A stretch of DNA of 50,792 nucleotides from a virus. Taxonomy: Duplodnaviria; Caudoviricetes. The position numbers and the translations under genes were made by a program. The notes below the pieces were generated by a model that worked only from the letters and a program-made list of their open reading frames with translations, was not told the DNA's origin and made no database searches. The stretch's first letter is position 1. The number at the start of each line of letters is the position of its first letter. The stretch spans positions 1-50,792 of the IMG/VR virus record IMGVR_UViG_3300015366_000230; one strand, written 5' to 3'. Shown piece after piece: positions 648 to 48,456 of this stretch.

Positions 648-3600
648 TTAAATTACCATCCATCTTTGACCTGAAGAAACTGTTAATGAAACACCGCTTG
701 CAACAGTAATTGAACCTACAGAAAAGGCATTTGTTCCTGAAGCAATAGTGTAACTTGAATTTACGGTAGTTGAGTTAACAAAAAGACCGTTTGAAGCAAC
801 TACTTCTGGAGCAGATAAAGCGCCAGTAGAAGGATTAAAATTATATGCTGAATTGACATTAGCAGTGCCAAAAGTGCCAGAAGTGGTGCTATTAAATACC
901 GGATAGAAAGTAGCATTAGAACTGGTAGAAGTTACTGTAATTGTTGATCCTGCGCCTGAATATCCAGAATAGCCTGAAATACCCAAGCCACTATAACCTG
1001 AAATTCCTGAACCAGAATATCCAGATATACCCGAATATCCTGATGCGCCATTAGAACCTGTACCACCAGAATAGCCTGAATAACCAGAAGTCCCATTAGT
1101 TCCAGTACCGCCTGAATATCCAGAATAGCCCGATGTACCATTTGTACCTGTACCGCCAGAGTATCCGCTAAAGCCAGAATAGCCAGAAATACCAGAATAA
1201 CCAGAAATTCCAGAATAACCACTAAAGCCAGAATAACCACTTACTCCGCTTCCGCTATAACCACTTATTCCGCTAGTTCCTGAGTAGCCTGAGATACCTG
1301 AATAACCACTGTATCCACTTGTTGCTATTCCTGAGAAACCTGAGTAACCACTATAACCACTTGTTCCGCTTATTCCCGCTGTAATAGCTAAAAATAATGG
1401 ATGATTGTTTGCAAAATCAGTTGTGCCTGTGCCACCTGAAGATATAAGGCTAACTGGAACTGTCCAATAACTATTAGAAGTTCCAGCATTTATGTTTGTT
1501 GTTGCACCAGTAATTAACCATGACTGATAATTGGCACTTGCATTTTGATCTTGAATTGTAAATTTTTGTGTAGGTTGTAACAATGCTAAAAATATATCAA
1601 TATCATCGCCATTGTTTGTAAGATGATTAATATTAATTTGTGTAGCATTACTTTGTGTTGCAGTATTCCAAAGTAAATATCCACTTGCAGGTTGTCCACT
1701 TGTTTGGACTGCTTCTGCATAATATAAAAATAAACTAGATGATGAACCTTGTACACCTGAGAATCCGCTTAGTCCTGAGTAACCGCTTACACCCGACCAT
1801 CCGCTGTATCCTGAAAGTCCCGACCATCCCGATACCCCTGAGAATCCTGACCATCCGCTAGTTCCACTGTATCCCGATTCCCCACTCCAGCCACTGTAAC
1901 CCGATGTACCTGAGTAACCACTAAAGCCTGAATAGCCACTATAGCCTGATAAACCAGAATAACCACTTACACCACTTCCAGAGTAACCGCTTGTACCTGA
2001 GTATCCAGAAATGCCTGAGTAACCAGAAATTCCGCTTGCGCCTGAATAGCCTGATATTCCTGATCCAGAATAGCCAGAAATTCCTGAATCTCCGCTAAAT
2101 CCTGAGTAGCCACTTATACCACTATCGCCAGACCATCCAGAATATCCGCTAATACCAGAATCTCCGCTAAATCCAGAAATGCCTGAATCGCCTGAATAAC
2201 CGCTAAAACCAGAAATTCCAGAATCACCTGAATACCCATTTATTCCAGAATCACCGCTATAGCCGGAAATACCGCTATCGCCTGACCAACCAGAAATACC
2301 GCTATCGCCACTATAGCCAGATATGCCACTATCTCCAGAATAGCCACTTATTCCAGAGTCACCAGAAAATCCGCTAATACCACTATCTCCTGACCAACCC
2401 GAAATACCACTATCACCACTAAATCCGCTAATGCCTGAATCACCAGAAAATCCGCTATAACCAGAAATTCCTGAGTCACCAGAGAATCCAGATATACCAG
2501 AGTCACCTGACCAACCACTTATTCCTGAATCACCAGAAAAACCTGAGATACCGCTATCGCCAGAATAACCACTAATACCAGAATCACCACTATATCCAGA
2601 GATTCCTGAATAGCCTGATTCACCGCTATATCCTGATGTGCTATCTCCGCTATAACCAGAGAATCCTGAGTAACCAGAAAAGCCTACAATTTGACCAGCA
2701 TTAAACCATTCAGTACCATTCCATACCCACAAGTCACCATCAGAGATAACAATGTAGGCATCATTGACTTGATTGCCTGTAGGGGGTAAGTCAGCAGGTG
2801 TTGGTACTGATCCCAATAAATTAATGGATGTACCTTGTTGACCGCTATAACCCGAAAAACCTGAATAACCAGAAATACCAGAATAGCCTGAAGTGCTATC
2901 TCCTGAGTATCCTGAAATACCAGAATCACCAGATAAACCACTTGTTCCAGAATAACCAGAATAACCACTGATACCTGAATAACCTGATGTGCCTACACCA
3001 GAAAATTGTGTCCAAATAATAGGGGTTACATTAATAGTTCCAGCTACAGGAGCAATAACTACCCAACCTGTACTGCCATTAATAGTTCCATATTGAATAA
3101 AAGTAAAAGCACCGGGTACTTCTGACCAGATATTCATATCTAGCGATCTTGACCAAGCAGTTTCAGATACTACATAAATTCCATTTTCAGCAGGATCATC
3201 TTGGTTTTTTACACAAACTCGATCACCAACTAAAACAGTGTAATTATCAATAGTTTGTAAACCATAAAGATCAATGTTGTTACCTAAAGGAGTGGTAGCG
3301 CATTGACAAGATGCTTTAGCCACCATGCCTTGAGCTATTGCATCGGCATAGGCTTTATTTACTAAATCATTTGGGTTAACAGGCAAAGTATTAACTTGAC
3401 CTGTTACTGTAAACATATTTTGAAATACAGCGGAATACAAACCTTCTTGTAAACCTTCAATTTGAACAAAAGCTCGACCTGTTCCCGCAGTCATTAAATT
3501 GACTACAAAATCACCAATAGACCAAGCTCTAGCGACTGTTCCTTCTTGACCTCTAATAACTGTCCATACATTGCCAGTTACATTCGTAACATAAACAATC

Positions 3601-3773
3601 TCATTAATCAGATTATTTTTTGCGCTAACAATCGTAGCGGTAAAGGCTTGCCCTACTGCTGGGCTAGGAAAATTAACTGAAGTGCCACTAGCGACTGTAA
3701 TCGTTGTGGCTGTGCTGCTAACAGGCAGCGCAAGCGCAGTTTGGGCTTGATTAGAAAATAATAGTATTGTCAT
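648..3773 (-). CDS. long tail fibre with collagen-like (Gly-X-Ser)n repeats
   Basis: N-terminal baseplate-anchor domain and fibre module (GDRVCVKNQ...ENGIYVV). Two long SG[YFIDW] triplet tracts with Gly at every third residue. Located after the baseplate genes. Confidence 0.8.
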   Translation of the reverse strand: MTILLFSNQAQTALALPVSSTATTITVASGTSVNFPSPAVGQAFTATIVSAKNNLINEIVYVTNVTGNVWTVIRGQEGTVARAWSIGDFVVNLMTAGTGRAFVQIEGLQEGLYSAVFQNMFTVTGQVNTLPVNPNDLVNKAYADAIAQGMVAKASCQCATTPLGNNIDLYGLQTIDNYTVLVGDRVCVKNQDDPAENGIYVVSETAWSRSLDMNIWSEVPGAFTFIQYGTINGSTGWVVIAPVAGTINVTPIIWTQFSGVGTSGYSGISGYSGYSGTSGLSGDSGISGYSGDSTSGYSGISGYSGFSGYSGQQGTSINLLGSVPTPADLPPTGNQVNDAYIVISDGDLWVWNGTEWFNAGQIVGFSGYSGFSGYSGDSTSGYSGESGYSGISGYSGDSGISGYSGDSGISGFSGDSGISGWSGDSGISGFSGDSGISGYSGFSGDSGISGFSGDSGISGWSGDSGISGFSGDSGISGYSGDSGISGYSGDSGISGWSGDSGISGYSGDSGINGYSGDSGISGFSGYSGDSGISGFSGDSGISGYSGWSGDSGISGYSGFSGDSGISGYSGSGISGYSGASGISGYSGISGYSGTSGYSGSGVSGYSGLSGYSGYSGFSGYSGTSGYSGWSGESGYSGTSGWSGFSGVSGWSGLSGYSGWSGVSGYSGLSGFSGVQGSSSSLFLYYAEAVQTSGQPASGYLLWNTATQSNATQININHLTNNGDDIDIFLALLQPTQKFTIQDQNASANYQSWLITGATTNINAGTSNSYWTVPVSLISSGGTGTTDFANNHPLFLAITAGISGTSGYSGYSGFSGIATSGYSGYSGISGYSGTSGISGYSGSGVSGYSGFSGYSGISGYSGISGYSGFSGYSGGTGTNGTSGYSGYSGGTGTNGTSGYSGYSGGTGSNGASGYSGISGYSGSGISGYSGLGISGYSGYSGAGSTITVTSTSSNATFYPVFNSTTSGTFGTANVNSAYNFNPSTGALSAPEVVASNGLFVNSTTVNSSYTIASGTNAFSVGSITVASGVSLTVSSGQRWMVI
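1755..2990 (-). repeat. coding tandem 9-nt degenerate repeats (SGI/SGY/SGF/SGD/SGW); second tract at ~955-1380
   Basis: visible in the translation; DNA codons are diversified while the triplet protein pattern is kept. Confidence 0.9.
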
Positions 3774-19490: not shown

Positions 19491-20330
19491 TTATCGCTTA
19501 ACATTTTCAGTATTAAACTTCACGACCCGATGAGTTGGGAGCTTGAAGTCACCTAACCATGCTTCCATATCACCACGGTATTCAGTGATGGTACGACCAG
19601 CTTGGTCTTTCTTGTGCAACGCGATCAATTGACCTTTTGCGATTGCGCCAGTTCCACGGGAAGCAGCCAAAGCGTCAGCGTAAACACGTTTTTCAACAAG
19701 AGCCAACATTGCGTTGTCTTTAATTGAATTTACGTTAATACTCTTCATTTCATCGCTATGAGCTTGCAAACCGCGCACCATACGCTTACGATAAGCCATT
19801 AAAGTTTCGCCTTGCAATGGGCGTGATGCAGATTTACCAAAAGCAGAATAAACAGAATCAGCTTTAGCTTGTGCATCGCACATAGCAGCTTCTTCGTCAT
19901 CTTTTTTAGCAGCTTCTTCATCGTCATCTTTACGGTCATCTTCTTCATCGTCGTCTTTTTTGAACTCCATGTGACCCGGATGTTCAACTTCGCCTTCGTC
20001 GTCTGGCTTAATTTCACCAGCTTTGCCGTGCTCTTTAGGATCAGATCCTTCTGCGTCTTTTTTAGCTTTACGCATCATGAATTTTTTAGCTTTGGCTTCA
20101 GACTCATCGTCATCTTTCTTAGCTTCTTCTTCTTCGTCGTCGTCGCATGCTTCCATGTCGTCATCTTTTTTCGCTTTAGCTTTTTTATCAGCCGCAGTTA
20201 CTAGTGGTGGCGCAGGAAGGTTTTTTTCCATTTCATCTAAACGGGACATTGTTTTGCCCAGTAAAGACATAATGGCATCTAATTTATCGCCTTGGGCATC
20301 TGCCTTTGGCTCAATCTTATTTTCAGTCAT
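19491..20330 (-). CDS. capsid scaffold protein (likely start MTENKIE at 20330)
   Basis: highly charged KKDDDEE repeats; GAGGTG RBS; overlaps the stop of the protease gene. Confidence 0.7.
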   Translation of the reverse strand: MTENKIEPKADAQGDKLDAIMSLLGKTMSRLDEMEKNLPAPPLVTAADKKAKAKKDDDMEACDDDEEEEAKKDDDESEAKAKKFMMRKAKKDAEGSDPKEHGKAGEIKPDDEGEVEHPGHMEFKKDDDEEDDRKDDDEEAAKKDDEEAAMCDAQAKADSVYSAFGKSASRPLQGETLMAYRKRMVRGLQAHSDEMKSINVNSIKDNAMLALVEKRVYADALAASRGTGAIAKGQLIALHKKDQAGRTITEYRGDMEAWLGDFKLPTHRVVKFNTENVKR

Positions 20331-22140
20331 TTTCAGACACCTCATTGTTAGTTAATAAAACTCCAGCGGCGTCGCCGCCTTTGTCCCATACTCCCTTTGA
20401 ACCCCTAGCTTTCGTAACGATTGCTATGTGATCCAGCAGGAATGGCACACCCTCAATCAAGAGTGGCTCGCCATTCTCGGTTGTAAGTGTAATGTTACCA
20501 GCAGTATTATCAAATACAACTGCTGGGGAAGTTGATACCTCACCTTCCAAAATTTCTTTAATTGCATCTTGGTCATAGATTTTTGCAATACCCCAGACTT
20601 CATCACCTTTAATGTAAGGTAGCAAAACGGAACCAACGGCACGGTTTTTAAATTCTTCTGTTGTTAATACTTGAGTTTCAGGGTGATCCATAATCACCAT
20701 TAAGCCATTACAGCGTTGTAAAAACTCGTTGTTTAAGTACAAAGATGGATCGCGCCAAACGTGTTCACCAATGCTTGAACGGAATGCCAAACCTGTACCT
20801 GTAATGCGAATTGCTAACAAAGCAATATTGGCATACATCTGTGGGCTGGCTAATAAATCTTCAGAAATCAGTTTAGCTACGTCAGTTTCGGTTTTAGCCA
20901 TAGCAATTTTGAACGCATTTTCTAAGCCCGGGTGAAGTGGCATCGGAGGCACCGTTGGACTACACCAATCGGAACCCGAAGATTCGTAGTTAAGCTTTAC
21001 TTCTTCTTTTACAAAGTTGTGAGCAACGTAATAGCAAAATTGTCCATCATCATAAAGAACTTCTAAATCGCCTTTATAATCGATGCCCGTTTCTTCTTTA
21101 CATTCACGGCGAGCGCATTCTTCAAGGGTTTCATCGCCTTTTTGATGTCCGCCGGGGATACACCAAGTACCGGGATAATCCCCACCACCCATACCTCTGC
21201 GAATCATTAAAACTTCTTCGTTAGGAGTGATAAACATAATTCCCGCAGCTCTACCTTGAGCGCCACCCATATTATCTTCAGGCTTTACTTCTTTTGGTGG
21301 TTCTGGTACTAATGCTGCGTTTTGTTCAATTGGCTCGTTTTCGGCATCTGGTACGCAATTCGGTACGCTTTTTCCGTCTTTTTCTTTCATACCATATTGG
21401 GTATAACCTTCCCAACATGGATCATCATCTGGAATAGCTTGTGCATATTCAATTAATGCGTCGCACATTTCTTCTAAATGGCTTTGCGCTTCATCAGCAT
21501 CGCATTTCCATTTTCGCAATGACTTATTGATTCTTGAATCAGGATCGTGAGCCGTCTTTTCAGAAGTAAGTTTGGCTTTCATGCCCTTCATTCGAGCGCA
21601 AAATGATTCTTTTCTTGACCCACCTTTAGGCTGAGGGGCTTTTAAATGCGCGCCATGTTCTTTGTTGTAAGATTCACGACCTTTTTCATTTAAACCACCA
21701 TTTTTGTTTTTGCCTTCTTTGGTCTGCCAAGCTTCAGAATCTTCAACACCAAAACGCGGTACGACTTCCTCATCGCAATCGTCGTCTTGTTTCATGGATT
21801 TGACATGTTGAGCAACTTGATAAAGTTTTTCGCCAATGTCTTTAATTTGCAATTTGCGTAGTTCGTGGCTTAATTCGCCTTTGCGAACCATGATATTGCT
21901 ATCAGTTTCAAACTCTGTTGGAGCTAAAAGTACAGGTGCAGATACCAAAGAATCTTCTTTTAAGGCTTTTACTTCCATTTCTTTTAATAAAAGTTCATTA
22001 AGCCACTCAAGATTTTCAGCTTCGCTGTCATCTTTGTGTTTTACAAATTTTTCGCCAACAGATTGTGGAATACCAATATTAGAATGCCCTGCGGCAGCAG
22101 CGTACATCGCTTTTCTTTGGTTTTCCGACTTAAATGGCAT
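20323..22140 (-). CDS. multidomain head protein: small N-terminal modules + NUDIX hydrolase + DUF2213-like prohead protease
   Basis: Nudix box GGHQKGDETLEECARRECKEETG; DUF2213-like R.P...DHP...DHIAIV region; DUF6321-like AW...EGK...GGLN.KGR...SFCARM module. Confidence 0.75.
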   Translation of the reverse strand: MPFKSENQRKAMYAAAAGHSNIGIPQSVGEKFVKHKDDSEAENLEWLNELLLKEMEVKALKEDSLVSAPVLLAPTEFETDSNIMVRKGELSHELRKLQIKDIGEKLYQVAQHVKSMKQDDDCDEEVVPRFGVEDSEAWQTKEGKNKNGGLNEKGRESYNKEHGAHLKAPQPKGGSRKESFCARMKGMKAKLTSEKTAHDPDSRINKSLRKWKCDADEAQSHLEEMCDALIEYAQAIPDDDPCWEGYTQYGMKEKDGKSVPNCVPDAENEPIEQNAALVPEPPKEVKPEDNMGGAQGRAAGIMFITPNEEVLMIRRGMGGGDYPGTWCIPGGHQKGDETLEECARRECKEETGIDYKGDLEVLYDDGQFCYYVAHNFVKEEVKLNYESSGSDWCSPTVPPMPLHPGLENAFKIAMAKTETDVAKLISEDLLASPQMYANIALLAIRITGTGLAFRSSIGEHVWRDPSLYLNNEFLQRCNGLMVIMDHPETQVLTTEEFKNRAVGSVLLPYIKGDEVWGIAKIYDQDAIKEILEGEVSTSPAVVFDNTAGNITLTTENGEPLLIEGVPFLLDHIAIVTKARGSKGVWDKGGDAAGVLLTNNEVSEND

Positions 22141-24404: not shown

Positions 24405-25691
24405 TTAGAATCCGAGCTTATTGCCTAATCCTAGCGCAATTCCATAGACTGTGCAATCTAATAAATCGTCCGCGCGCTTGTGGGCATCGGGATCACCTAG
24501 TCTAAACGCAGATAGCTGAGTAATCAAGTGATTGCGTGTAGCGCCCTTAAAACCGACGGTTTTATTGAACGCATATTCGCTAATTTTCATTTGTTCTTGG
24601 TGAACGTACCCTGATACGTTGACCACTCTTTCATCTTTGCCTAATTGTGTCATTTTGCTATCAATGGCGCGCATATTCCAACCACGGTTTTCAGCTTGCT
24701 GCAATAAAATAGAACCAGTAGCCGTATCTTCAGTGAATATTCCCACCGATCCATAGACTGCTTTGGTTTGAATGGCTAATTCTTCTAGTCGGCGGTAAAT
24801 GCTGGGAATCCAATGCTCTAATAACCCACCATCGATTTGAACCACGTCCCAATCGAGGACGGTTAGCGGTATGCCAAACTCATTTAACGCAAAAAAGACC
24901 ACTGCAGTTCCATCGTGTTGTTTGCCGCCTTTTACCGCCGTATCCATTACCGCGAACACCGCGTCAGATCTTTCGGGGTAGGGGACGGGCAATCCGTCAA
25001 TGAGCATCTTGTCGATCGACAGGATGGCAACGCTAGACCAATCGACAAACTCGGCAAGATACTCTTGCTGGAACACTTGCGGGTGGTTGCGCTGGCGTTC
25101 GCGTTCTAATTCATCTAACGGGACATACGGGTTTGTACTGGTAGGCGCATGAAACGGCACAAAACCCAGTTCGGGATCGTTACTTGCTGCCCAAAAGAAA
25201 TTGCTAGCATCTACGCCGTTCGGCGTAGAAAATACCCATCCAATACCTTTGGTTGTCAGCATGGTTGGCTTGATGGACTTGAACCAGAGTTCATCTAACA
25301 TTTGCGGGCTTTTGGTAAACGCCGCTTCGTCAATCAGCACCAAGTCGTACTCGCGCCCGCGCCCTGCTAGCGGGTTGTCATTTAGCGCCCAGAAGTCAAT
25401 CTTGCCGCCACCCATAATCTTGATGGTACCGTCGTTGCGGTTGGCGGACTTGACCACGGGATCTAACATGTCGCGCAAATTACTCCACGGTTCGGACAAC
25501 TGCTTATACTCGGGGGTAAACAATCCGACTGACAGCCCATTGCAAGCGCCCTTAGCCGCAAGCCATTCCATCATGCGTGTTTTACCCCAGCGTCGTCCGC
25601 AGCGTACAACATTCAATCTTTTTTGTTGTAAAAACAGGGCTTCTTGCCCTGAATGTAACACTGGTAACTTGACTCTTCGGACGTCAGCCAT
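24405..25691 (-). CDS. terL: terminase large subunit
   Basis: Walker A GRRWGKT, GR...DLVLIDEAA, STPNG, QEYLAEF, nuclease D...DD..D. Confidence 0.95.
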   Translation of the reverse strand: MADVRRVKLPVLHSGQEALFLQQKRLNVVRCGRRWGKTRMMEWLAAKGACNGLSVGLFTPEYKQLSEPWSNLRDMLDPVVKSANRNDGTIKIMGGGKIDFWALNDNPLAGRGREYDLVLIDEAAFTKSPQMLDELWFKSIKPTMLTTKGIGWVFSTPNGVDASNFFWAASNDPELGFVPFHAPTSTNPYVPLDELERERQRNHPQVFQQEYLAEFVDWSSVAILSIDKMLIDGLPVPYPERSDAVFAVMDTAVKGGKQHDGTAVVFFALNEFGIPLTVLDWDVVQIDGGLLEHWIPSIYRRLEELAIQTKAVYGSVGIFTEDTATGSILLQQAENRGWNMRAIDSKMTQLGKDERVVNVSGYVHQEQMKISEYAFNKTVGFKGATRNHLITQLSAFRLGDPDAHKRADDLLDCTVYGIALGLGNKLGF

Positions 25692-25697
25692 TAGCTG

Positions 25698-26099
25698 TTA
25701 GCTTTCAATTTTTGGATCGGGCAATGAGTTCTCAACAATAATGCGTAGTTCGTTAGTGCCGTCAGCTTCTGGCTTGGCAGGTTTCCAGCCATGTAAGTGA
25801 GTAAGCACTGTCGTTGCCGCTTTTGTATCACCATTTAAAGCATTACGCATAAGCGATCCGCTGACATCGGAATGGTTTTTGGCACGTCCATAGACAACGG
25901 CTTCAGCCGCTTTTTGGTCAAATTGGCAAAGACGATTGAAATCTACGGGCAAAAAGCCGGCGGCGATAGCAAGGGCGTCACCGGATAGTCCACGATAAGC
26001 TGCATCGTAAATATTGGCGATCTCTTCTTCGGTGGCGACAATTTTGTCTGTTTTATGGTCAATAGAGAAAAATAGCGGATCGGGTGTAAAGCGTTCCAT
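25698..26099 (-). CDS. terS: terminase small subunit
   Basis: directly upstream of terL; HTH-like region then GRA...V...L...A..GD..A motif. Confidence 0.75.
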   Translation of the reverse strand: MERFTPDPLFFSIDHKTDKIVATEEEIANIYDAAYRGLSGDALAIAAGFLPVDFNRLCQFDQKAAEAVVYGRAKNHSDVSGSLMRNALNGDTKAATTVLTHLHGWKPAKPEADGTNELRIIVENSLPDPKIES

Positions 26100-26467
26100 A
26101 GTTTCTCCTAAATATTGACAGATGAGCCGATATTAGCACAAACCCTTAAATATGCAAACTATTAGGGTTTACCCTATAGTTTAAAACTATGGGCTTTTAG
26201 CTTGGGGCTGTTTGACATAATATGTTAGTACATACTAACTTAGTTTTATTTTTTAAAAATTTTTGTAGCCGATTTGCAAAAGACTTTTTTGCATAAATCC
26301 TAGATTAAAAACCCGATTCTTTGTGCTCACCTAAAGTAATGACCCCCTTTTTCGATTTTATATGGCAAAAATCCGCGCCTTATAAACAAAGGGCGGGCGG
26401 GCGATATCGCCTTGAAAGCCCCTAGTTATAAGCCCCCAGCCCCTCGCTGATAGCTTTTAGCTGACGG

Positions 26468-26495
26468 CTTGCGTATAACGTACATTATGTCAATC
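26468..26495 (+). other. dif-like XerC/XerD recombination site
   Basis: CTTGCGTATAA-CGTACA-TTATGTCAATC versus E. coli dif GGTGCGCATAA-TGTATA-TTATGTTAAAT; 11-6-11 architecture. Confidence 0.65.
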
Positions 26496-26601
26496 AATAA
26501 TAGGTTAAATTGTCATTGGAAAACTATTAGCTTAGGTCTATTAGCTAGGGGCTAACGGCTTGAAATTTAAGCCGGAGCGAGGCGGGGACAAAATTTACCT
26601 A

Positions 26602-26720
26602 TTAGCCCCTAGCCCCTAGCTGATAGCTCTAATATTAGCCCCTAGCTCCTAGCTCCCAGCTGATAGCTTTGCTATTTATCAGCTTGATCGAGCTATTTTT
26701 CAGCTATTAGCTAGCAGCTC
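26602..26720. repeat. 7-mer AGC[CT]CCT tandem repeats with GCTGATAGCT units
   Basis: TTAGCCCCTAGCCCCTAGCTGATAGCT and TTAGCCCCTAGCTCCTAGCTCCCAGCTGATAGCT; related copies near 26418, 28832, 29757. Confidence 0.75.
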
Positions 26721-27001
26721 AAAATCACGGATTTTTGCATGGTTTAAAAAATTGTCATTTGGGCAAATTGTCACGCACGAAAAATTGCTCGCCATAAAAA
26801 TATATAAAAACCCTATATATACATTCAGTAAAATTAAAAATTTAAGATAGTATGACAATTTGACCTATAAAAAAGCTCCAAGCTCCTAGCCGTAAACCTT
26901 TGCCGATTGTCACGCCCCCAAAAAAGCGGCTTTATTCATTACCTAAAAAAATGACAATTTCCCGCTATTTTGCAAAAACGCAACAAAATGTAAAATAATT
27001 C

Positions 27002-27030
27002 TTTACGCATGCTTAAAAATTTGAGATACT
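27002..27030 (+). promoter_or_regulatory. sigma70-like early promoter
   Basis: TTTACG-17 nt-GATACT with extended TGn, upstream of the early ORF cluster. Confidence 0.5.
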
Positions 27031-27086
27031 GATTTTGTTGTATCGCAATTTGATAAATGACAATTTAACCTATAAGGGATAAAAAA

Positions 27087-27197
27087 ATGAATAAACAAAA
27101 AATAACATTTTGGGAATTTTTAGGCGCTTGCGTTTTGGGCGCAGTAATCGGGACATTTTCCGCCATTGTTTACATATACGCTACAGGGGGTTTTTAA
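27087..27197 (+). CDS. 36-aa single-TM early peptide (not in the ORF track)
   Basis: MNKQKITFWEFLGACVLGAVIGTFSAIVYIYATGGF*, AAGGGA RBS. Confidence 0.6.
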   Translation: MNKQKITFWEFLGACVLGAVIGTFSAIVYIYATGGF

Positions 27198-27198
27198 C

Positions 27199-28089
27199 AT
27201 GAAAACAGTTTTTTCTAGCCATAACGAGTGCGCGCATATTTGGGCGTCACAATCACAATACGAAGGGCGCGCGGGCAATATCTTTTTTGAAGGGGATACG
27301 GTTTACAGTTACGGGCGTCATTTTCCCGTCGCGCGCTTCGCGCCTGAATTTGGCGGGATTGTTTTATTCACGGATCGCGGCTATTCCAACAGTACGAGCA
27401 AACATAAGGGGATTATTCGCGGCGCTATCCCTAGCGCCTACACCGTTATATATTGCGACGATCCAAGCCGCCCCGCCTCGCATAATTTAGATATTTGGGC
27501 GCGGCGCGTGGATCGCTTGCGCGGGGAATTTGCCGCTAAGAAAAACAAACAAGGGCGCGCCAAGCTCGCGGGCGAGATATTCGCCAATAGCTGCGCGGCG
27601 ATCGCCTATTGTGACGCGCTCAAGATCGACGCGCCCGGCTTTACTTGCTCAACCACGGACGAGGATAATAGCCGCGAATACGGTGCTATTGTTGCGCGCG
27701 AGCGAGAAGCTAAGGCGACAATTCGCCGCGCTGAATATGAGAAAAAATCCGCTCTAGAGGCTGCCGAGCGCCTCGCTTTATGGCAAGCGGGCGAATATGT
27801 ACCTTCTCACGGCTTCAATTATTGCGATACGGTTTTAAGAATTAAGGGCGAAAACATACAAACAAGCCGCGGCGCTCAAATACCCGTTGCCGACGCGCTC
27901 AAAATCTATCCTTTATTAGATCGCGCCAAGCGATCCGGCAAAACATTAGAGGCGGGGCTGCACAATATCAATTTGGGATCGTATCGTTTTAATAGTTTTG
28001 ATGGAAATACGCTTATCGTCGGCTGCCATTCGATAGCGTGGAATGAAATAGAAAAAATGGCAATTCAGTTAAATTTAAGAGAGGGTTAA
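27199..28089 (+). CDS. early phage protein of unknown function (start revised to ATG 27199)
   Basis: AGGGGG RBS; AH.WA.Q...YSYG.HF motif recalled from phage early genes. Confidence 0.7.
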   Translation: MKTVFSSHNECAHIWASQSQYEGRAGNIFFEGDTVYSYGRHFPVARFAPEFGGIVLFTDRGYSNSTSKHKGIIRGAIPSAYTVIYCDDPSRPASHNLDIWARRVDRLRGEFAAKKNKQGRAKLAGEIFANSCAAIAYCDALKIDAPGFTCSTTDEDNSREYGAIVAREREAKATIRRAEYEKKSALEAAERLALWQAGEYVPSHGFNYCDTVLRIKGENIQTSRGAQIPVADALKIYPLLDRAKRSGKTLEAGLHNINLGSYRFNSFDGNTLIVGCHSIAWNEIEKMAIQLNLREG

Positions 28090-28547: not shown

Positions 28548-28865
28548 ATGATTACTTCCGAAGATTTTAGCCGCGCAAATAATGACGTAAACGGGAACCC
28601 CCGCTATGTTTGCCACTTTTTAAGCCTGACAGTACCAAGCGATCTAGAGGGCTATTTAGGGTTAGATAAAATAACGCAAAAATACAATATAGCTTTAGCC
28701 CGCGCCCGTAAGCTAGGCGGCAAAAAATTTCACAATAAACAATATGGCGGGGGGATCATTTTTACTACTTATAACTTGCGCGAATTGTGCGAGCAAATAA
28801 ACGCGATCCGCGCCGCGTTATTGCCGCCCCAAGCCCCTAGCTATCAGCAATTAGAATTATTTTAA
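28548..28865 (+). CDS. phage early protein (DVNGNPRY...YGGGI motif)
   Basis: in the early operon, followed by a terminator. Confidence 0.65.
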   Translation: MITSEDFSRANNDVNGNPRYVCHFLSLTVPSDLEGYLGLDKITQKYNIALARARKLGGKKFHNKQYGGGIIFTTYNLRELCEQINAIRAALLPPQAPSYQQLELF

Positions 28866-39778: not shown

Positions 39779-39991
39779 ATGGCAAAAGAAGAATATATTT
39801 GGACTAAACCCGGTACCGACATTGCTTTACGCTGGCGCATGCGCTACGGCTGGATACCGCCATCTGAACAGCAAGAGTACAAAGATAAATGGAAATATTG
39901 GCAAAATCTTCCTATTCGAGATTTAGATGCTGACGCCAAAGAAACGTACGAACGGGCTTTGGCTAAAGCTAAAGTAGTGAGGCTCAAATGA
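39779..39991 (+). CDS. hypothetical protein
   Basis: GAGGA RBS; W..YGW.PPSE motif. Confidence 0.65.
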   Translation: MAKEEYIWTKPGTDIALRWRMRYGWIPPSEQQEYKDKWKYWQNLPIRDLDADAKETYERALAKAKVVRLK

Positions 39992-40158
39992 ACGATCTAT
40001 CATACGACCTTGTTAAGCTTAAAAAGCTTGTTAATCAGCTAGAAATATTAAACGCCAACCCGGGGCTAATTGGAAAAAAATTAATTACAGAAGCCGTACA
40101 AGAGATTAAGATTACGGTTACCCAATTAGAAATTCAGGTGGCGAATTATGCAGACTAG
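39988..40158 (+). CDS. hypothetical protein (not in the ORF track)
   Basis: ATGA overlap; MNDLSYDLVKLKKL... Confidence 0.55.
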   Translation: MNDLSYDLVKLKKLVNQLEILNANPGLIGKKLITEAVQEIKITVTQLEIQVANYAD

Positions 40159-40431: not shown

Positions 40432-40595
40432 TGGATGAGATAGAAATTGCCAAATTGCAAGAACGATTGGCTAAAGCTTTAGCCGATGCAGATTATTGGC
40501 GTTTAATGTACGACAAACTCATTAAATATATTGACCATCAAAACAGCTATGTCCGTCATTTAGAACAACAAGTTTGGGGAGGGAAAACTTTTTGA
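40431..40595 (+). CDS. hypothetical coiled-coil protein (not in the ORF track)
   Basis: TAATG coupling; MDEIEIAKLQERLAKAL... Confidence 0.55.
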   Translation: MDEIEIAKLQERLAKALADADYWRLMYDKLIKYIDHQNSYVRHLEQQVWGGKTF

Positions 40596-41074
40596 GAAAA
40601 CGAAAAGAAATTGAAGTTAAAGTTGGTGATCCATCAACAGATGTTTGGGACGATGCAACCATATCAACATCAGAGTATCTTCGCATTCAACAGTTAAAAC
40701 ACCAATCTGCTTTAGCGGCGCTTAACGGAATTGGTGATGTTAATAGTGATGCCAAAGGGTCGGGCGCTCGCTACAATGCTGGCAAACCCGACATGAGTTT
40801 GATACCGCTATGTACTCTTGAAGATGAAGCCAAAGTGTGGGCGTATGGAAAGCAAAAATACGCTGCATGGAATTGGGCGAAAGGCATGGATTGGTCAGTA
40901 CCTTTGGCTTGCGCTTTGCGTCATTTATCTAAATGGCAAGCGGGTGAAGAGAACGATGAAGAGTCTGGTTTACCACACTTAGCCCATGCTATGTGCAATT
41001 TACGAATGTTGACCTTGTACGCAAAAACGTACGTCGAAGGGGACGATCGACCACCAAAGGAATTAATGCCATGA
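40574..41074 (+). CDS. dATP/dGTP diphosphohydrolase-family protein (DUF5664-like); start uncertain
   Basis: K....LIP, V..YG..KY...NW.KG, RH...W..GE..D.ESGL.HLAHA..N. Confidence 0.8.
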   Translation: MGRENFLRKRKEIEVKVGDPSTDVWDDATISTSEYLRIQQLKHQSALAALNGIGDVNSDAKGSGARYNAGKPDMSLIPLCTLEDEAKVWAYGKQKYAAWNWAKGMDWSVPLACALRHLSKWQAGEENDEESGLPHLAHAMCNLRMLTLYAKTYVEGDDRPPKELMP

Positions 41075-45767: not shown

Positions 45768-46202
45768 CTATAGGAAGTTTAACACTTCTTGCGGTTTTAC
45801 AAAAGCATCTGGATTATGCTCCGTATGCTCCCACCAAAGAAATTGGTTAGGCGCCAAATATTTCCGATCGCGTAACAAATTAGTGTTTTCTGGGTGCCCA
45901 AAGATATTAGGGTCAGATACAGACCATAAAACAATACCCGGTTTACCTTCGCTCCAAGCTAGATGCTGAAAAAAGCTATCTACGCCGATCCACGTTTTGC
46001 AATTTTTAATGAGTTGGCGCAACTCAATCATAGGTAAATTCTTACAAAAATCCGGTACTAACTGAGTTTCTCCTTCTATGCCGACTTGAACAACTTGCAT
46101 AGTTTTTTGCAATTCTTGTACAAGTTCTTCCCAATATGGATAGTTTTTAGGATTTTCTTTGCCATTTCTCAATGGTTTTGCATAAGGATGAATTAAGATC
46201 AT
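45768..46202 (-). CDS. GT9 (heptosyltransferase-like) C-terminal lobe
   Basis: K.YP.W..L, VVQ.G, IGVDS...HLA....KP.IVLW. Confidence 0.75.
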   Translation of the reverse strand: MILIHPYAKPLRNGKENPKNYPYWEELVQELQKTMQVVQVGIEGETQLVPDFCKNLPMIELRQLIKNCKTWIGVDSFFQHLAWSEGKPGIVLWSVSDPNIFGHPENTNLLRDRKYLAPNQFLWWEHTEHNPDAFVKPQEVLNFL

Positions 46203-47176
46203 AGATACAGCTTTCTAAAAGCATTCTCTAAACTATCTTTCCATTTCCATTGATCCATTTTTTTATAGATATTCCACTGATCTAAATTGCCAAATAAGGC
46301 TTGTGCTTCGGCTATTGATTTGCCGGGTACTACTTCCGGGTAGCAAGTGAAAACAAGAGGGCTGGCAATATTAGGCAGCACACGACTAAAAACGATATGG
46401 TCGCCAAGCCCAGAATTAAGAACCACAATATTATTTCCACGATAGCGGAGGAAATTTCTGAATATAGCTTCGTCATGGTTAAACAATTCCTTTTTAGTTT
46501 CGCTACGAATACCGCCTTCTGGATTCTTTAAATGCCAAGAGTTAGCGTTAGGGATAACTATAACTGCATATCCCTTTTGATGTAACCCATAGGTAAATAG
46601 CGTTTCTTCACGATGTGCTACTCGGGATAACCCTAAGTTATAGTCATGCACCCCAGATCGGTACAAAAAGGAACAATGCAGATGTTCTACAAAATTAGAC
46701 TTTTCAATGTAGTTCCATTGAATATTAGGCTCTATATCAATATGCTTAATTTGACCTGTGGCATTGACTTGTAGCAATGGCGGGGTAAGAATAGCCCCAC
46801 CGACTGCACCCACTTTAGGTACTTGTGTTGCATAGGTATATAGGCTTTTTAAAACATTTGGCTCTGGAATACAGTCGTCATCGACTCGCCACACCCATTC
46901 AAAACCCTGTTTACAAGCGATGTCATTTGCCATTTGATGGATATGGTGCTGTCCTTTTTTAGGAGCAAATAGCCATTCCCATTGAATGCCTTTAATGTTT
47001 AAGATTTCAAAGATATGCCTGTAGATAAACTCTTGTCGCATATCCTTTGGATCGTCATTGTCATCAAAAATAATCAGCTTATCGGGAAGCTGATCTTGAT
47101 TGAGAATGGCGGTTAAAACTAAGGGCAGTGTAGTGAAATACCGCCCCCGGGTGGCTACGGAGCAGAGTACTTGCAT
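46199..47176 (-). CDS. GT2-like glycosyltransferase fused to a GT9 N-terminal lobe
   Basis: DDD motif (RVDDD), GAVGG; C-terminal GLGD.I. Confidence 0.75.
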   Translation of the reverse strand: MQVLCSVATRGRYFTTLPLVLTAILNQDQLPDKLIIFDDNDDPKDMRQEFIYRHIFEILNIKGIQWEWLFAPKKGQHHIHQMANDIACKQGFEWVWRVDDDCIPEPNVLKSLYTYATQVPKVGAVGGAILTPPLLQVNATGQIKHIDIEPNIQWNYIEKSNFVEHLHCSFLYRSGVHDYNLGLSRVAHREETLFTYGLHQKGYAVIVIPNANSWHLKNPEGGIRSETKKELFNHDEAIFRNFLRYRGNNIVVLNSGLGDHIVFSRVLPNIASPLVFTCYPEVVPGKSIAEAQALFGNLDQWNIYKKMDQWKWKDSLENAFRKLYL

Positions 47177-48456
47177 AGCATTAAATTGGCTCGGTTAGAT
47201 TCTGAAATTGGCATGGGTTCATTTGACAAAATACCATGCTCGTTAATAAAGGTAAACTCAAACCCGGGAAAGTTGCTTTCATTTAAGCCATGCAGCTGAT
47301 GATGCTCTCCCCAAAATCCTTTAGGTTCATTCCAAGGAACAGAAATCAATAATTGTTTGCAATGATTTTTGAGTTTTTCAACTATTTCTAACCCATTATC
47401 TAAATGCTCAATGACTTCAAAAGCAACAATCGCATCGTATTGGTCAAGTTCATAAGTATTAATGTCCGCCCATTCAAAAGCAGCATTTGGTCGCCAATCT
47501 TGATCTTTAGCTACTTCTACAATAATTGGATCGTAATCTAGCCCTAGATAGTTGGCATTGTCAGAAAAGAAATTGCAGCCATATCCAGTAGAGCAGCCAA
47601 TTTCTAAAATGCTTAACCCAGCAAAGTTTTTTCTAGCCCAGTTGTATCTTTGGGTTTCTCTAGGAAAAATAGTGTCACCTTTTAAAAACACTGCTCGCTC
47701 ATAATTATTGGATAGCAAGAATCGGTAGTAGTCTGGATTGTATTTTTTAGCCAATCTTAAAGAATTGGATTTAAAAGTGGCATCCCAATCTGGGACTAAA
47801 TTGACATCATGGACTGTACCTTCCCCTTGATGGTAAATTGGAAATCCGCCAGTAAAGTTATTACCTGTCCATTGTTTATCAAATACCTCTAAAACCTTAA
47901 AACCTGCTTTTTCAGCTTCAATACAAAACTCGGTATCTTCACCACCGCCTACTCCATATTCCTCATTAAGTAAGCCAATGGCATCAAATACTTTGCGATC
48001 AATCATTACACAGAAAAATACCGCAAAGTCCTTACCTGCGGGTGGAGAAAAGATTTTAATAATGCAAGAGATACCGCAATCAGGATTGGCAAAAGGTTGA
48101 TTCAATATCTCTAACCACTGATTTTTGCTTTGTTCTAGCAAAACAGTATCATTGTTTAACAAAATGATTTTGTCAGTTGTAGCCAGTTTAATGCCACTAT
48201 TACAGGCTTTTGAGTAACCTAATGGAATACTGTAAAACAAATAGTTAAAGTGTTTTGGCAATCCGAGATTGATGTATTTAGCTTCTAAATATCTAAGGTA
48301 GGCTAGGGTTTCATCGTTGCAGCCATTGGCAATAATGATAAGTTCAATGTCCTCAATATTGGTGTATTTAAAAATACTATCAATACAAGGTTTTAATAAA
48401 TCATCGCAATGATTATAAGTCGGTATAACTACCGAATACTTGGGGGATTGCATCAC
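47155..48456 (-). CDS. GT2 glycosyltransferase fused to a class I SAM methyltransferase
   Basis: SVVIPTYN, LLNND, G.LNE.Y...EDTEF; ILEIGCSTGYG, FEVIEH. Confidence 0.85.
   Translation of the reverse strand: MMQSPKYSVVIPTYNHCDDLLKPCIDSIFKYTNIEDIELIIIANGCNDETLAYLRYLEAKYINLGLPKHFNYLFYSIPLGYSKACNSGIKLATTDKIILLNNDTVLLEQSKNQWLEILNQPFANPDCGISCIIKIFSPPAGKDFAVFFCVMIDRKVFDAIGLLNEEYGVGGGEDTEFCIEAEKAGFKVLEVFDKQWTGNNFTGGFPIYHQGEGTVHDVNLVPDWDATFKSNSLRLAKKYNPDYYRFLLSNNYERAVFLKGDTIFPRETQRYNWARKNFAGLSILEIGCSTGYGCNFFSDNANYLGLDYDPIIVEVAKDQDWRPNAAFEWADINTYELDQYDAIVAFEVIEHLDNGLEIVEKLKNHCKQLLISVPWNEPKGFWGEHHQLHGLNESNFPGFEFTFINEHGILSNEPMPISESNRANLMLCKYSAP

Follow-up and report, generated by a model that had tools for sequence, protein, structure and literature searches.

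The phage genome and the region beside its terminase genes

The DNA analysed here, which we call the window, is an entire IMG/VR virus record of 50,792 bp that is classed as linear and estimated by CheckV to be 100% complete, and its G+C content is 42%. Based on Pfam and PHROGs scans of its ORFs, the minus strand carries genes for a portal, a large terminase, capsid, tail, baseplate and a collagen-repeat fibre. The genome also has a lytic-type replication set that includes a family A DNA polymerase, a DUF5906 primase-helicase, a DUF2800 exonuclease, an SNF2 helicase and a VRR-NUC-like nuclease. No close or cultured relative was found among GenBank phages, where terL gave weak matches only (67-69% identity over 4-11% of the query).

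Several other genes of the window were observed in the course of annotation. A 1041-aa protein encoded at 648-3773 (minus strand) has four collagen triple-helix repeat stretches (PF01391, 4.4e-56) and is presumably the tail fibre. The 605-aa head-module protein at 20323-22140 (minus strand) combines DUF6321, a NUDIX domain and DUF2213, and the fusion of a NUDIX hydrolase within a head-assembly gene is unusual. An ORF at 40574-41074 (plus strand) houses the N-terminal domain of dATP/dGTP diphosphohydrolase (PF18909, 4.6e-29; phrog_801), a domain known from adenine-replacing phages; no PurZ-like gene was noticed alongside it in the window. In addition, three clustered glycosyltransferase-like genes at 45768-48456 (minus strand), one of them fused to a methyltransferase, are common to most relatives, including the complete genome G248, which lacks the site described below.

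Upstream of the terminase genes lies a repeat-dense non-coding region, bordered on its other side by plus-strand ORFs without assigned function. Its features and the neighbouring genes, in window coordinates, are:

24405..25691, minus strand: large terminase gene, terL (PF03237, 2.1e-5; phrog_2, 2.8e-32)
25698..26099, minus strand: candidate small terminase gene, 133 aa (position directly upstream of terL and weak fold evidence)
26100..27165, no strand: 1.07-kb non-coding region holding the site, repeat-dense, with no ORF of at least 60 aa
26210..26220, minus strand: lone second XerD-type half-site, TTATGTCAAAC, from its sequence
26417..26467, no strand: TAGC-type repeats in 7-nt phase on the XerC side, with more at 26523-26720 (repeat families D1-D5)
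26468..26495, plus strand: dif-type core site, 11-6-11, 28 bp, from its sequence; single in the window and kept in 29 related viral contigs
26468..26478, plus strand: XerC-type arm, CTTGCGTATAA, inner 10 nt identical to Polynucleobacter dif
26479..26484, plus strand: central region CGTACA, the would-be place of strand exchange, 1/6 bases identical to the host centre TCATTA
26485..26495, plus strand: XerD-type arm, TTATGTCAATC, inner 9 nt identical to host dif
26496..26515, plus strand: conserved XerD-side extension whose last part is the first repeat, GGTTAAATTGTCA (26503-26515); spacing fixed within the family
26749-26757 and 26765-26773, plus strand; 26853-26861, 26952-26960 and 27058-27066, minus strand: further exact AAATTGTCA repeats

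The candidate small terminase ORF (25698..26099) had no match in Pfam, PHROGs or NCBIfam. Its AF2 model is helical (pLDDT 78.5), and Foldseek returned non-significant matches only, small terminases among them (E 0.09-4.6), so the name terS-like rests on position. Two 52-aa ORFs inside the non-coding region had no Pfam match. Scans for promoters and terminators in the region of the site gave counts no higher than in shuffled sequences, and no promoter overlapped the site. By analogy with pac regions that bear repeats, as well as from its position, 26100..27165 is probably a packaging (pac) or control region.

The repeats are organised around the site. Six of the seven exact AAATTGTCA copies of the window fall within 26507-27066, of which the first three are on the plus strand and the next three on the minus strand, and most relatives with enough sequence on the right side have one plus-strand copy beside the site and minus-strand copies 230-650 nt rightward. 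The XerD-type arm has a TGTCA core in common with these neighbouring repeats. At positions +25 to +46 a conserved 22-nt extension to the right of the site ends in GGYYARATTGYCA at fixed spacing, several of its positions being preset by the selection pattern. Relatives carry repeats of the TAGC kind as well, of a sequence that is not the same.

The second XerD half-site that had been noticed in the sequence is indeed there, as TTATGTCAA on the minus strand at 26212-26220. Its core reads TTGACA on the plus strand, which is also a -35-like hexamer, and it is absent from the closest relative, L002. Among distinct family rows, some of which are near-duplicates, 15/28 have a leftward second XerD-type 9-mer: ten inverted at -205 to -257, one inverted at -497 and four direct at -284. 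We also observed an imperfect palindrome, GTTAGTA-CA-TACTAAC, at 26204-26240, immediately right of the second half-site; it is kept in L002 except for two central bases.

A dif-type site whose arms match Polynucleobacter

On the plus strand, positions 26468-26495 read CTTGCGTATAA CGTACA TTATGTCAATC, which is the layout of a dif-type site, namely two arms of ~11 bp with partial dyad symmetry, 6-8 bp apart. When TTGCGTATAA-N6-TTATGTCAA was searched for with up to 3 mismatches, the window contained one match against 0.04 expected, and 4 of 100 shuffled windows gave any match. The 11-6-11 site with XerC- and XerD-like arms that the original prediction described is thus present, as the only match of the window, and it is real rather than a product of chance. 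There is one site per genome.

The arms were then compared with the dif of candidate Burkholderiales hosts, as had been suggested, and they are those of Polynucleobacter. Among 185,579 bacterial and archaeal species genomes (one per species), TTGCGTATAA-N6-TTATGTCAA occurs at 90 loci, mostly in Polynucleobacter and other Burkholderiales, with the centre TCATTA in 50/90. In the complete chromosome of P. necessarius the host site remains single even at 3 mismatches, and its distance from dnaA is 964.7 kb on a circle of 1,893,413 bp, or 51% of the way round. The pattern [T/C/A]TGCGTATAA TCATTA TTATGTCAA is found within 2 mismatches in 203/241 Polynucleobacter genomes (one match in 193 genomes, two in 10), and a reversed-pattern control hit 4 genomes. 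For two Polynucleobacter genomes, Kono et al. 2011 (supplementary file 2) predicted TTTGCGTATAATCATTATTATGTCAAAC and TCTGCGTATAATCATTATTATGTAAAAT to be dif, and this independent 28-mer prediction agrees with the dif found here; the supplements of Carnoy & Roten have no Polynucleobacter entry. A host genome, G001, encodes a XerD that scores 349 bits against an NCBIfam cut-off of 329.6, and a second recombinase whose best match is XerC, at 268 bits and below the cut-off of 335.

In the inner 10 + 9 nt of its arms, 19 positions together, the phage site is identical to the genus dif, and the arm variants of the phage, TTATGTAAA and TTGCGCATAA, are each found in host dif sites as well. At its outer end the XerD-type arm of the window has the two bases TC, where the host and relatives have AT or AC. 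The likeness extends to the flank: the 6 nt after the host dif are ATAAGA in 38/50 genome hits and ACAAGA in 7/50, and the phage family mostly has A[TC]AAGA after the site, resembling the host ATAAGA, while the window itself has TCAATA. Public sequencing runs that share sequence with the window (Logan contigs) carry lake or freshwater labels; the shares are small, at most 0.39. Taken on its sequence, the site is supported as Xer-type and matched to a Burkholderiales host, and the site, the flanking ATAAGA, the 42% G+C and the habitat labels point to Polynucleobacter as probably the host of the phage clade.

Three further observations were made on the host side. Conservation of the host dif reaches beyond the canonical XerD arm (host loci L035-L124, e.g. 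L040), and eleven host genomes have long identical flanks on both sides of dif, of the GAGCCATACCC... type. Two contigs of betaproteobacterial MAGs, L113 and L123, have the same arms around G+C-rich centres, CGGGCT and GGCCGA, and are without phage-type flanks; they may belong to other elements of this host group as Xer sites of the plasmid type.

Conservation of the arms and turnover of the centre

An exact scan of IMG/VR for TTGCGTATAA-N6-TTATGTCAA returned 31 contigs, 29 of which are relatives of the window phage. In these 29 contigs the terminase genes lie beside the site, the TerL proteins are 64-99% and the terS-like proteins 54-92% identical to those of the window, and the site always has the same orientation, 260-424 nt upstream of the terS-like gene. 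Non-conservation in relatives had been named as what would speak against the prediction, and the same arms were found in the same place. The remaining two contigs, L008 and L030, have unrelated contexts. A scan of viral contigs with the single TerL protein gave 2 loci only, and the site pattern together with a TerL alignment was needed to reach the family.

Since the IMG/VR scan fixed both arms, two less biased checks were made. When metagenomes were scanned with no other anchor than the XerD-type arm and the repeat after it, 33 matches came up, 21 of them in the phage family; the XerC-type arm, which was left free, was exactly TTGCGTATAA in 18/21 and had one base changed in the other 3/21. 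The second check started from 80 loci picked by TerL similarity alone. The site was present in 18 of these, 660-780 nt from terL and in 3/18 with a 7-nt centre, and all 18 lie among the 43 loci whose TerL is at least 61% identical, 6 of which had too little upstream DNA to judge.

The site is not universal in the wider group. Four complete relatives (G246, G247, G248 and G250), whose TerL is 63-72% identical to that of the window, lack it anywhere in the genome at 6-nt spacing and up to 3 mismatches, and the site therefore marks a sub-clade. Its absence from complete relatives, and its presence in only 18/80 TerL-selected loci, also mean that it is dispensable for this type of phage. No gene tracked cleanly with the site when five site-bearing and three site-lacking complete genomes were compared for gene content; a TreK-like ORF (28548-28865) and a 56-aa ORF (39988-40158) track with it partly. 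A 307-aa ORF (27166-28089) was considered as an obligatory partner and rejected, being missing from the site-bearing G003 and G005. It has 169 homologues, none of them functionally named (unnamed or 'hypothetical protein').

Within the site, arms and centre behave differently. Across 18 non-redundant representatives the arms hold ~2.0 bits per position, against 0.1-0.9 in the left 40 nt and 0.6-1.5 in the centre. In the genus rows shown, the host centre hardly ever departs from TCATTA, which no member of the phage family was found to have. The 18 representatives share 0-3/6 centre bases with it (the window 1/6), and their centres are 69% G+C. The 6-nt centres of the family include CCGCTA, CGTACG, CCGGTG, CCGGTA, CTGGTG, GGTAGA, GCGGTA and CTGGCG beside the CGTACA of the window, and 7-nt centres (TTAGCGA, TGGGACG) stand between the same arms in L139, L140, L148 and L230, with the site ~766 nt upstream of terL in the first three. 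According to passages of PMC5357621, the centre measures 6-8 bp in dif-type sites and 8 bp in cer.

The rate of change was estimated from close pairs, defined as having both 40-nt flanks at least 80% identical, after two identical pairs and one duplicate pair had been dropped. In the three independent pairs that remained, the centre differs at 9/18 positions, the flanks at 16/240 and the arms at 0/57 (centre versus flanks, Fisher p=5e-6; versus the left flank alone, 3e-4), so that among close relatives the centre changes ~8x faster than the flanks. Logan contigs contain a close relative with 5/6 centre bases changed, the inner arms intact and AT as the outer bases of the XerD arm. Mosaic pairs, identical in one flank and unrelated in the other, were considered as products of site-specific exchange between lineages; this was rejected, because the terminase genes further left are of the same lineage, and the pairs are read as local turnover of the repeat tract.

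The unrelated contig L008 (IMGVR_UViG_3300019776_000431) is of separate interest. This 5.7-kb viral contig, which encodes RusA, DUF7696 and a serine recombinase, has a full host-type dif including the centre TCATTA (locus 3001-3025), ~170 nt from the contig end. It may represent the edge of a prophage adjoining dif, or else an element from the same host group that truly integrates at dif.

Possible roles of the site

The original prediction had seen no recombinase gene in the window, and this holds in all searches made. Pfam and PHROGs scans, covering 63 and 41 ORFs, returned neither a tyrosine nor a serine recombinase, and there was no match in a six-frame PF00589 search (E<=1) of ten phage records (G000, G002-G005, G246-G250) or in a six-frame PF00239 search (E<=0.1) of five (G000, G246-G248, G250). 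The ORF scans of the window likewise recognised no repressor or other lysogeny gene, and no ParA, ParB or Rep. Contigs of relatives start at different map points, and G004, G247 and G250 carry terminal repeats, which is compatible with a circular or circularly permuted genome. Joints listed in Logan contigs proved to be fragmentary alignments to relatives, with no ends and no usable joints, and were set aside.

Traces of integration were looked for on both the host and the phage side. The 241 species-representative Polynucleobacter genomes contain two distant TerL matches (40% and 32% identity), so that none is closer than 40%. Phage flanks surround 0/90 genome matches of the arm pattern, and the host centre or host left flank occurs in 0/21 family matches from metagenomes. 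No phage-host hybrid site was seen, the phage-left/host-right junction having been checked among the 90 genome hits. The search for related prophages flanked by dif, which had been proposed as a check, therefore returned none among the 241 genomes and 90 hits. The more similar of the two Polynucleobacter terminases (L242, G095:C2:108385-109647), at 40% identity, is like that of the viral contig L003, and L242 may represent a prophage from another group, which is possibly temperate.

We consider it very probable, from the sequence comparisons, that the site is a selected binding site for XerC and XerD. That it merely resembles one by chance is a negligible prospect: although short dif-like matches can arise in A+T-rich non-coding DNA, and the second half-site is also a -35-like hexamer, 0.04 matches are expected per window at 3 mismatches, 29/31 exact viral matches lie in the same place in relatives and the arms are identical to a genus-wide host dif, so that this explanation is already refuted. 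We also give little credence to the idea that a phage protein, the terS-like product or another repeat-binding protein, reads the site, its likeness to dif stemming from past capture or from the TGTCA core. TGTCA is present both in the XerD-type arm and in the AAATTGTCA repeats, the distance to the following repeat is fixed, and the region is probably pac, judged from position with weak fold evidence. Against this, the XerC-type arm is unlike the repeats and yet as conserved as the XerD-type arm, the 19 arm positions are those of the genus dif with arm variants that also occur in host sites, and a captured, functionless site would decay in its arms as fast as in its flanks. A further explanation, which we regard as unlikely, is that XerC and XerD bind without recombining, the site acting as an architectural element or roadblock in a packaging or replication complex, where the bound proteins might halt a translocase, for example FtsK, or take SMC-type complexes off the phage DNA. 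XerD-dependent SMC unloading is known in Bacillus. The abstract of PMC2800217 reports that FtsK stops at XerCD-dif. A pure binding site would be expected to show selection in its arms but none in its centre, as is seen here, and the fixed spacing to a conserved repeat, the repeat-rich setting upstream of terS and the recurrence of a lone XerD-type half-site nearby would also fit. Binding alone, however, gives no reason for a centre that changes faster than its flanks or that avoids the host centre in 18/18 representatives, nor for the exact 6-7 nt spacing of a recombination core, and no phage precedent was found in the literature searched.

Lysogeny by XerCD-mediated insertion at the host dif, in the manner of IMEX elements such as CTX-phi and VGJ-phi, had been put forward in the original prediction, and the comparisons turn against it. 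The phage is an integrase-less element with arms identical to those of the host dif, filamentous phages are described as doing exactly this, and some family centres end in ..CTA or ..GTA and so share their last 2-3 bases with the host ..TTA. Passages of PMC5357621 describe integrative elements as keeping homology with dif in at least one side of the centre, that of the exchanging recombinase, whereas here the centre is divergent (1/6 in the window, 0-3/6 in representatives). In addition, no integrated copy was seen at the host dif in species-representative genomes, no TerL relative exceeds 40% in 241 genomes, neither phage flanks (0/90) nor a host centre or left flank (0/21) turned up on the other side, and no repressor or other lysogeny gene was recognised. 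With a divergent centre, no prophage copy and no hybrid site, integration at dif is quite improbable.

A private XerCD site, at which the phage DNA would recombine with itself to yield circular phage monomers, is the reading best suggested by the selected, host-matched arms, the single site, the centre unlike that of the host and the lack of both a recombinase and a prophage; on the sequences at hand we see it as evenly balanced between right and wrong. The resolution of circular multimers, which was the second option of the original prediction, comes close to this reading. The phage arms would recruit host XerC and XerD, and the divergent centre would keep strand exchange with the host dif from being completed. 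The site would be insulated from host dif and would therefore recombine only with an identical copy of itself. Such a copy might lie on a sister genome or within a circular dimer or multimer, or it might be the one at the opposite end of an injected genome with terminal redundancy. Its job would be to make or restore circular monomers of phage DNA, beside the probable packaging-initiation region upstream of the terminase genes; terminally redundant injected DNA could be circularised by this route if the site lies in the redundancy next to pac. As described in passages of PMC5357621, Xer strand exchange occurs in the centre, and plasmid sites such as cer, which have a centre of their own, are resolved by XerC-first exchange. 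Several points weigh against a private site. Close relatives live without it, a lytic-looking phage packages concatemers without an obvious need for monomers, and the plasmid-maintenance genes ParA, ParB and Rep were not recognised in the window. The TGTCA core common to the XerD-type arm and the repeats means that a phage protein could read this arm. Either FtsK or accessory proteins are normally required to activate Xer recombination; no such activator was identified in the phage, where no gene tracks cleanly with the site. More tentatively, and on the pattern of sequence change, a virulent tailed phage may use the host enzymes as a borrowed Cre-lox, with the fast-changing centre as a lineage barcode that keeps recombination private. 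Such a centre would block exchange with the host dif and with co-infecting lineages, and would permit circularisation or monomerisation of the phage's own DNA beside the packaging site.

By analogy, a private XerCD site of this kind would work most like plasmid cer or psi, and in role would be most like P1 loxP. Passages of PMC5357621 describe cer (ColE1), psi (pSC101) and mwr as lying on recombinase-less replicons with one dif-type core, host-matched arms and a 6-8 bp centre unlike dif, as is the case here, and state that such sites recombine only with another copy of themselves. Here, in contrast, the site is carried by a tailed phage of 50 kb whose gene set is of the lytic type and for which no plasmid state is known. 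Beside the XerC arm, where the plasmid sites have ~180-bp accessory sequences bound by PepA/ArgR/ArcA, the phage shows TAGC repeats of 7 nt and no recognised sequence of that kind; a conserved repeat follows its XerD arm, and its centre is hypervariable between lineages. P1 is likewise a tailed phage with a single recombination site on its own DNA. In P1, loxP near pac also circularises terminally redundant injected DNA. However, P1 encodes its own recombinase, Cre, whereas the phage here would borrow that of its host, and P1 is a known plasmid prophage, while the pac position and terminal redundancy of the present phage are inferred. The role of loxP in keeping the P1 plasmid prophage monomeric is described in the abstract of PMC2409434, and a literature passage states that plasmid prophages usually carry their own Xer-like recombinase.

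The attP sites of IMEX elements (CTX-phi, VGJ-phi, TLC-phi and the gonococcal island) also belong to integrase-less elements and are dif-like and matched to host XerCD. They differ in that at least one side of their centre is homologous to dif and that they are found integrated at dif (passages of PMC5357621), against 0-3/6 centre bases and no integrated copy for the phage, and the carriers described in the literature searched are filamentous phages, small non-tailed phages and genomic islands rather than a tailed phage. The pdif sites of Acinetobacter plasmids are described in abstracts as dif-like sites on an extrachromosomal element, presumably used by host XerCD; these are paired and flank mobile modules, whereas the phage has one site per genome. 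In the literature passages searched, the exploiters of XerCD are plasmids, filamentous or small non-tailed phages and genomic islands; these passages contain no description of a tailed, lytic-looking phage with a host-dif mimic, and a report elsewhere could be missed.

If the site works, Xer hijacking extends to large tailed phages. Matching of dif arms would then offer a host assignment from sequence only for uncultured phages, here to Polynucleobacter, an abundant freshwater genus. The family would also provide a natural experiment on how the centre controls the choice of Xer partner, with invariant arms around a centre that changes ~8x faster than the neighbouring DNA.
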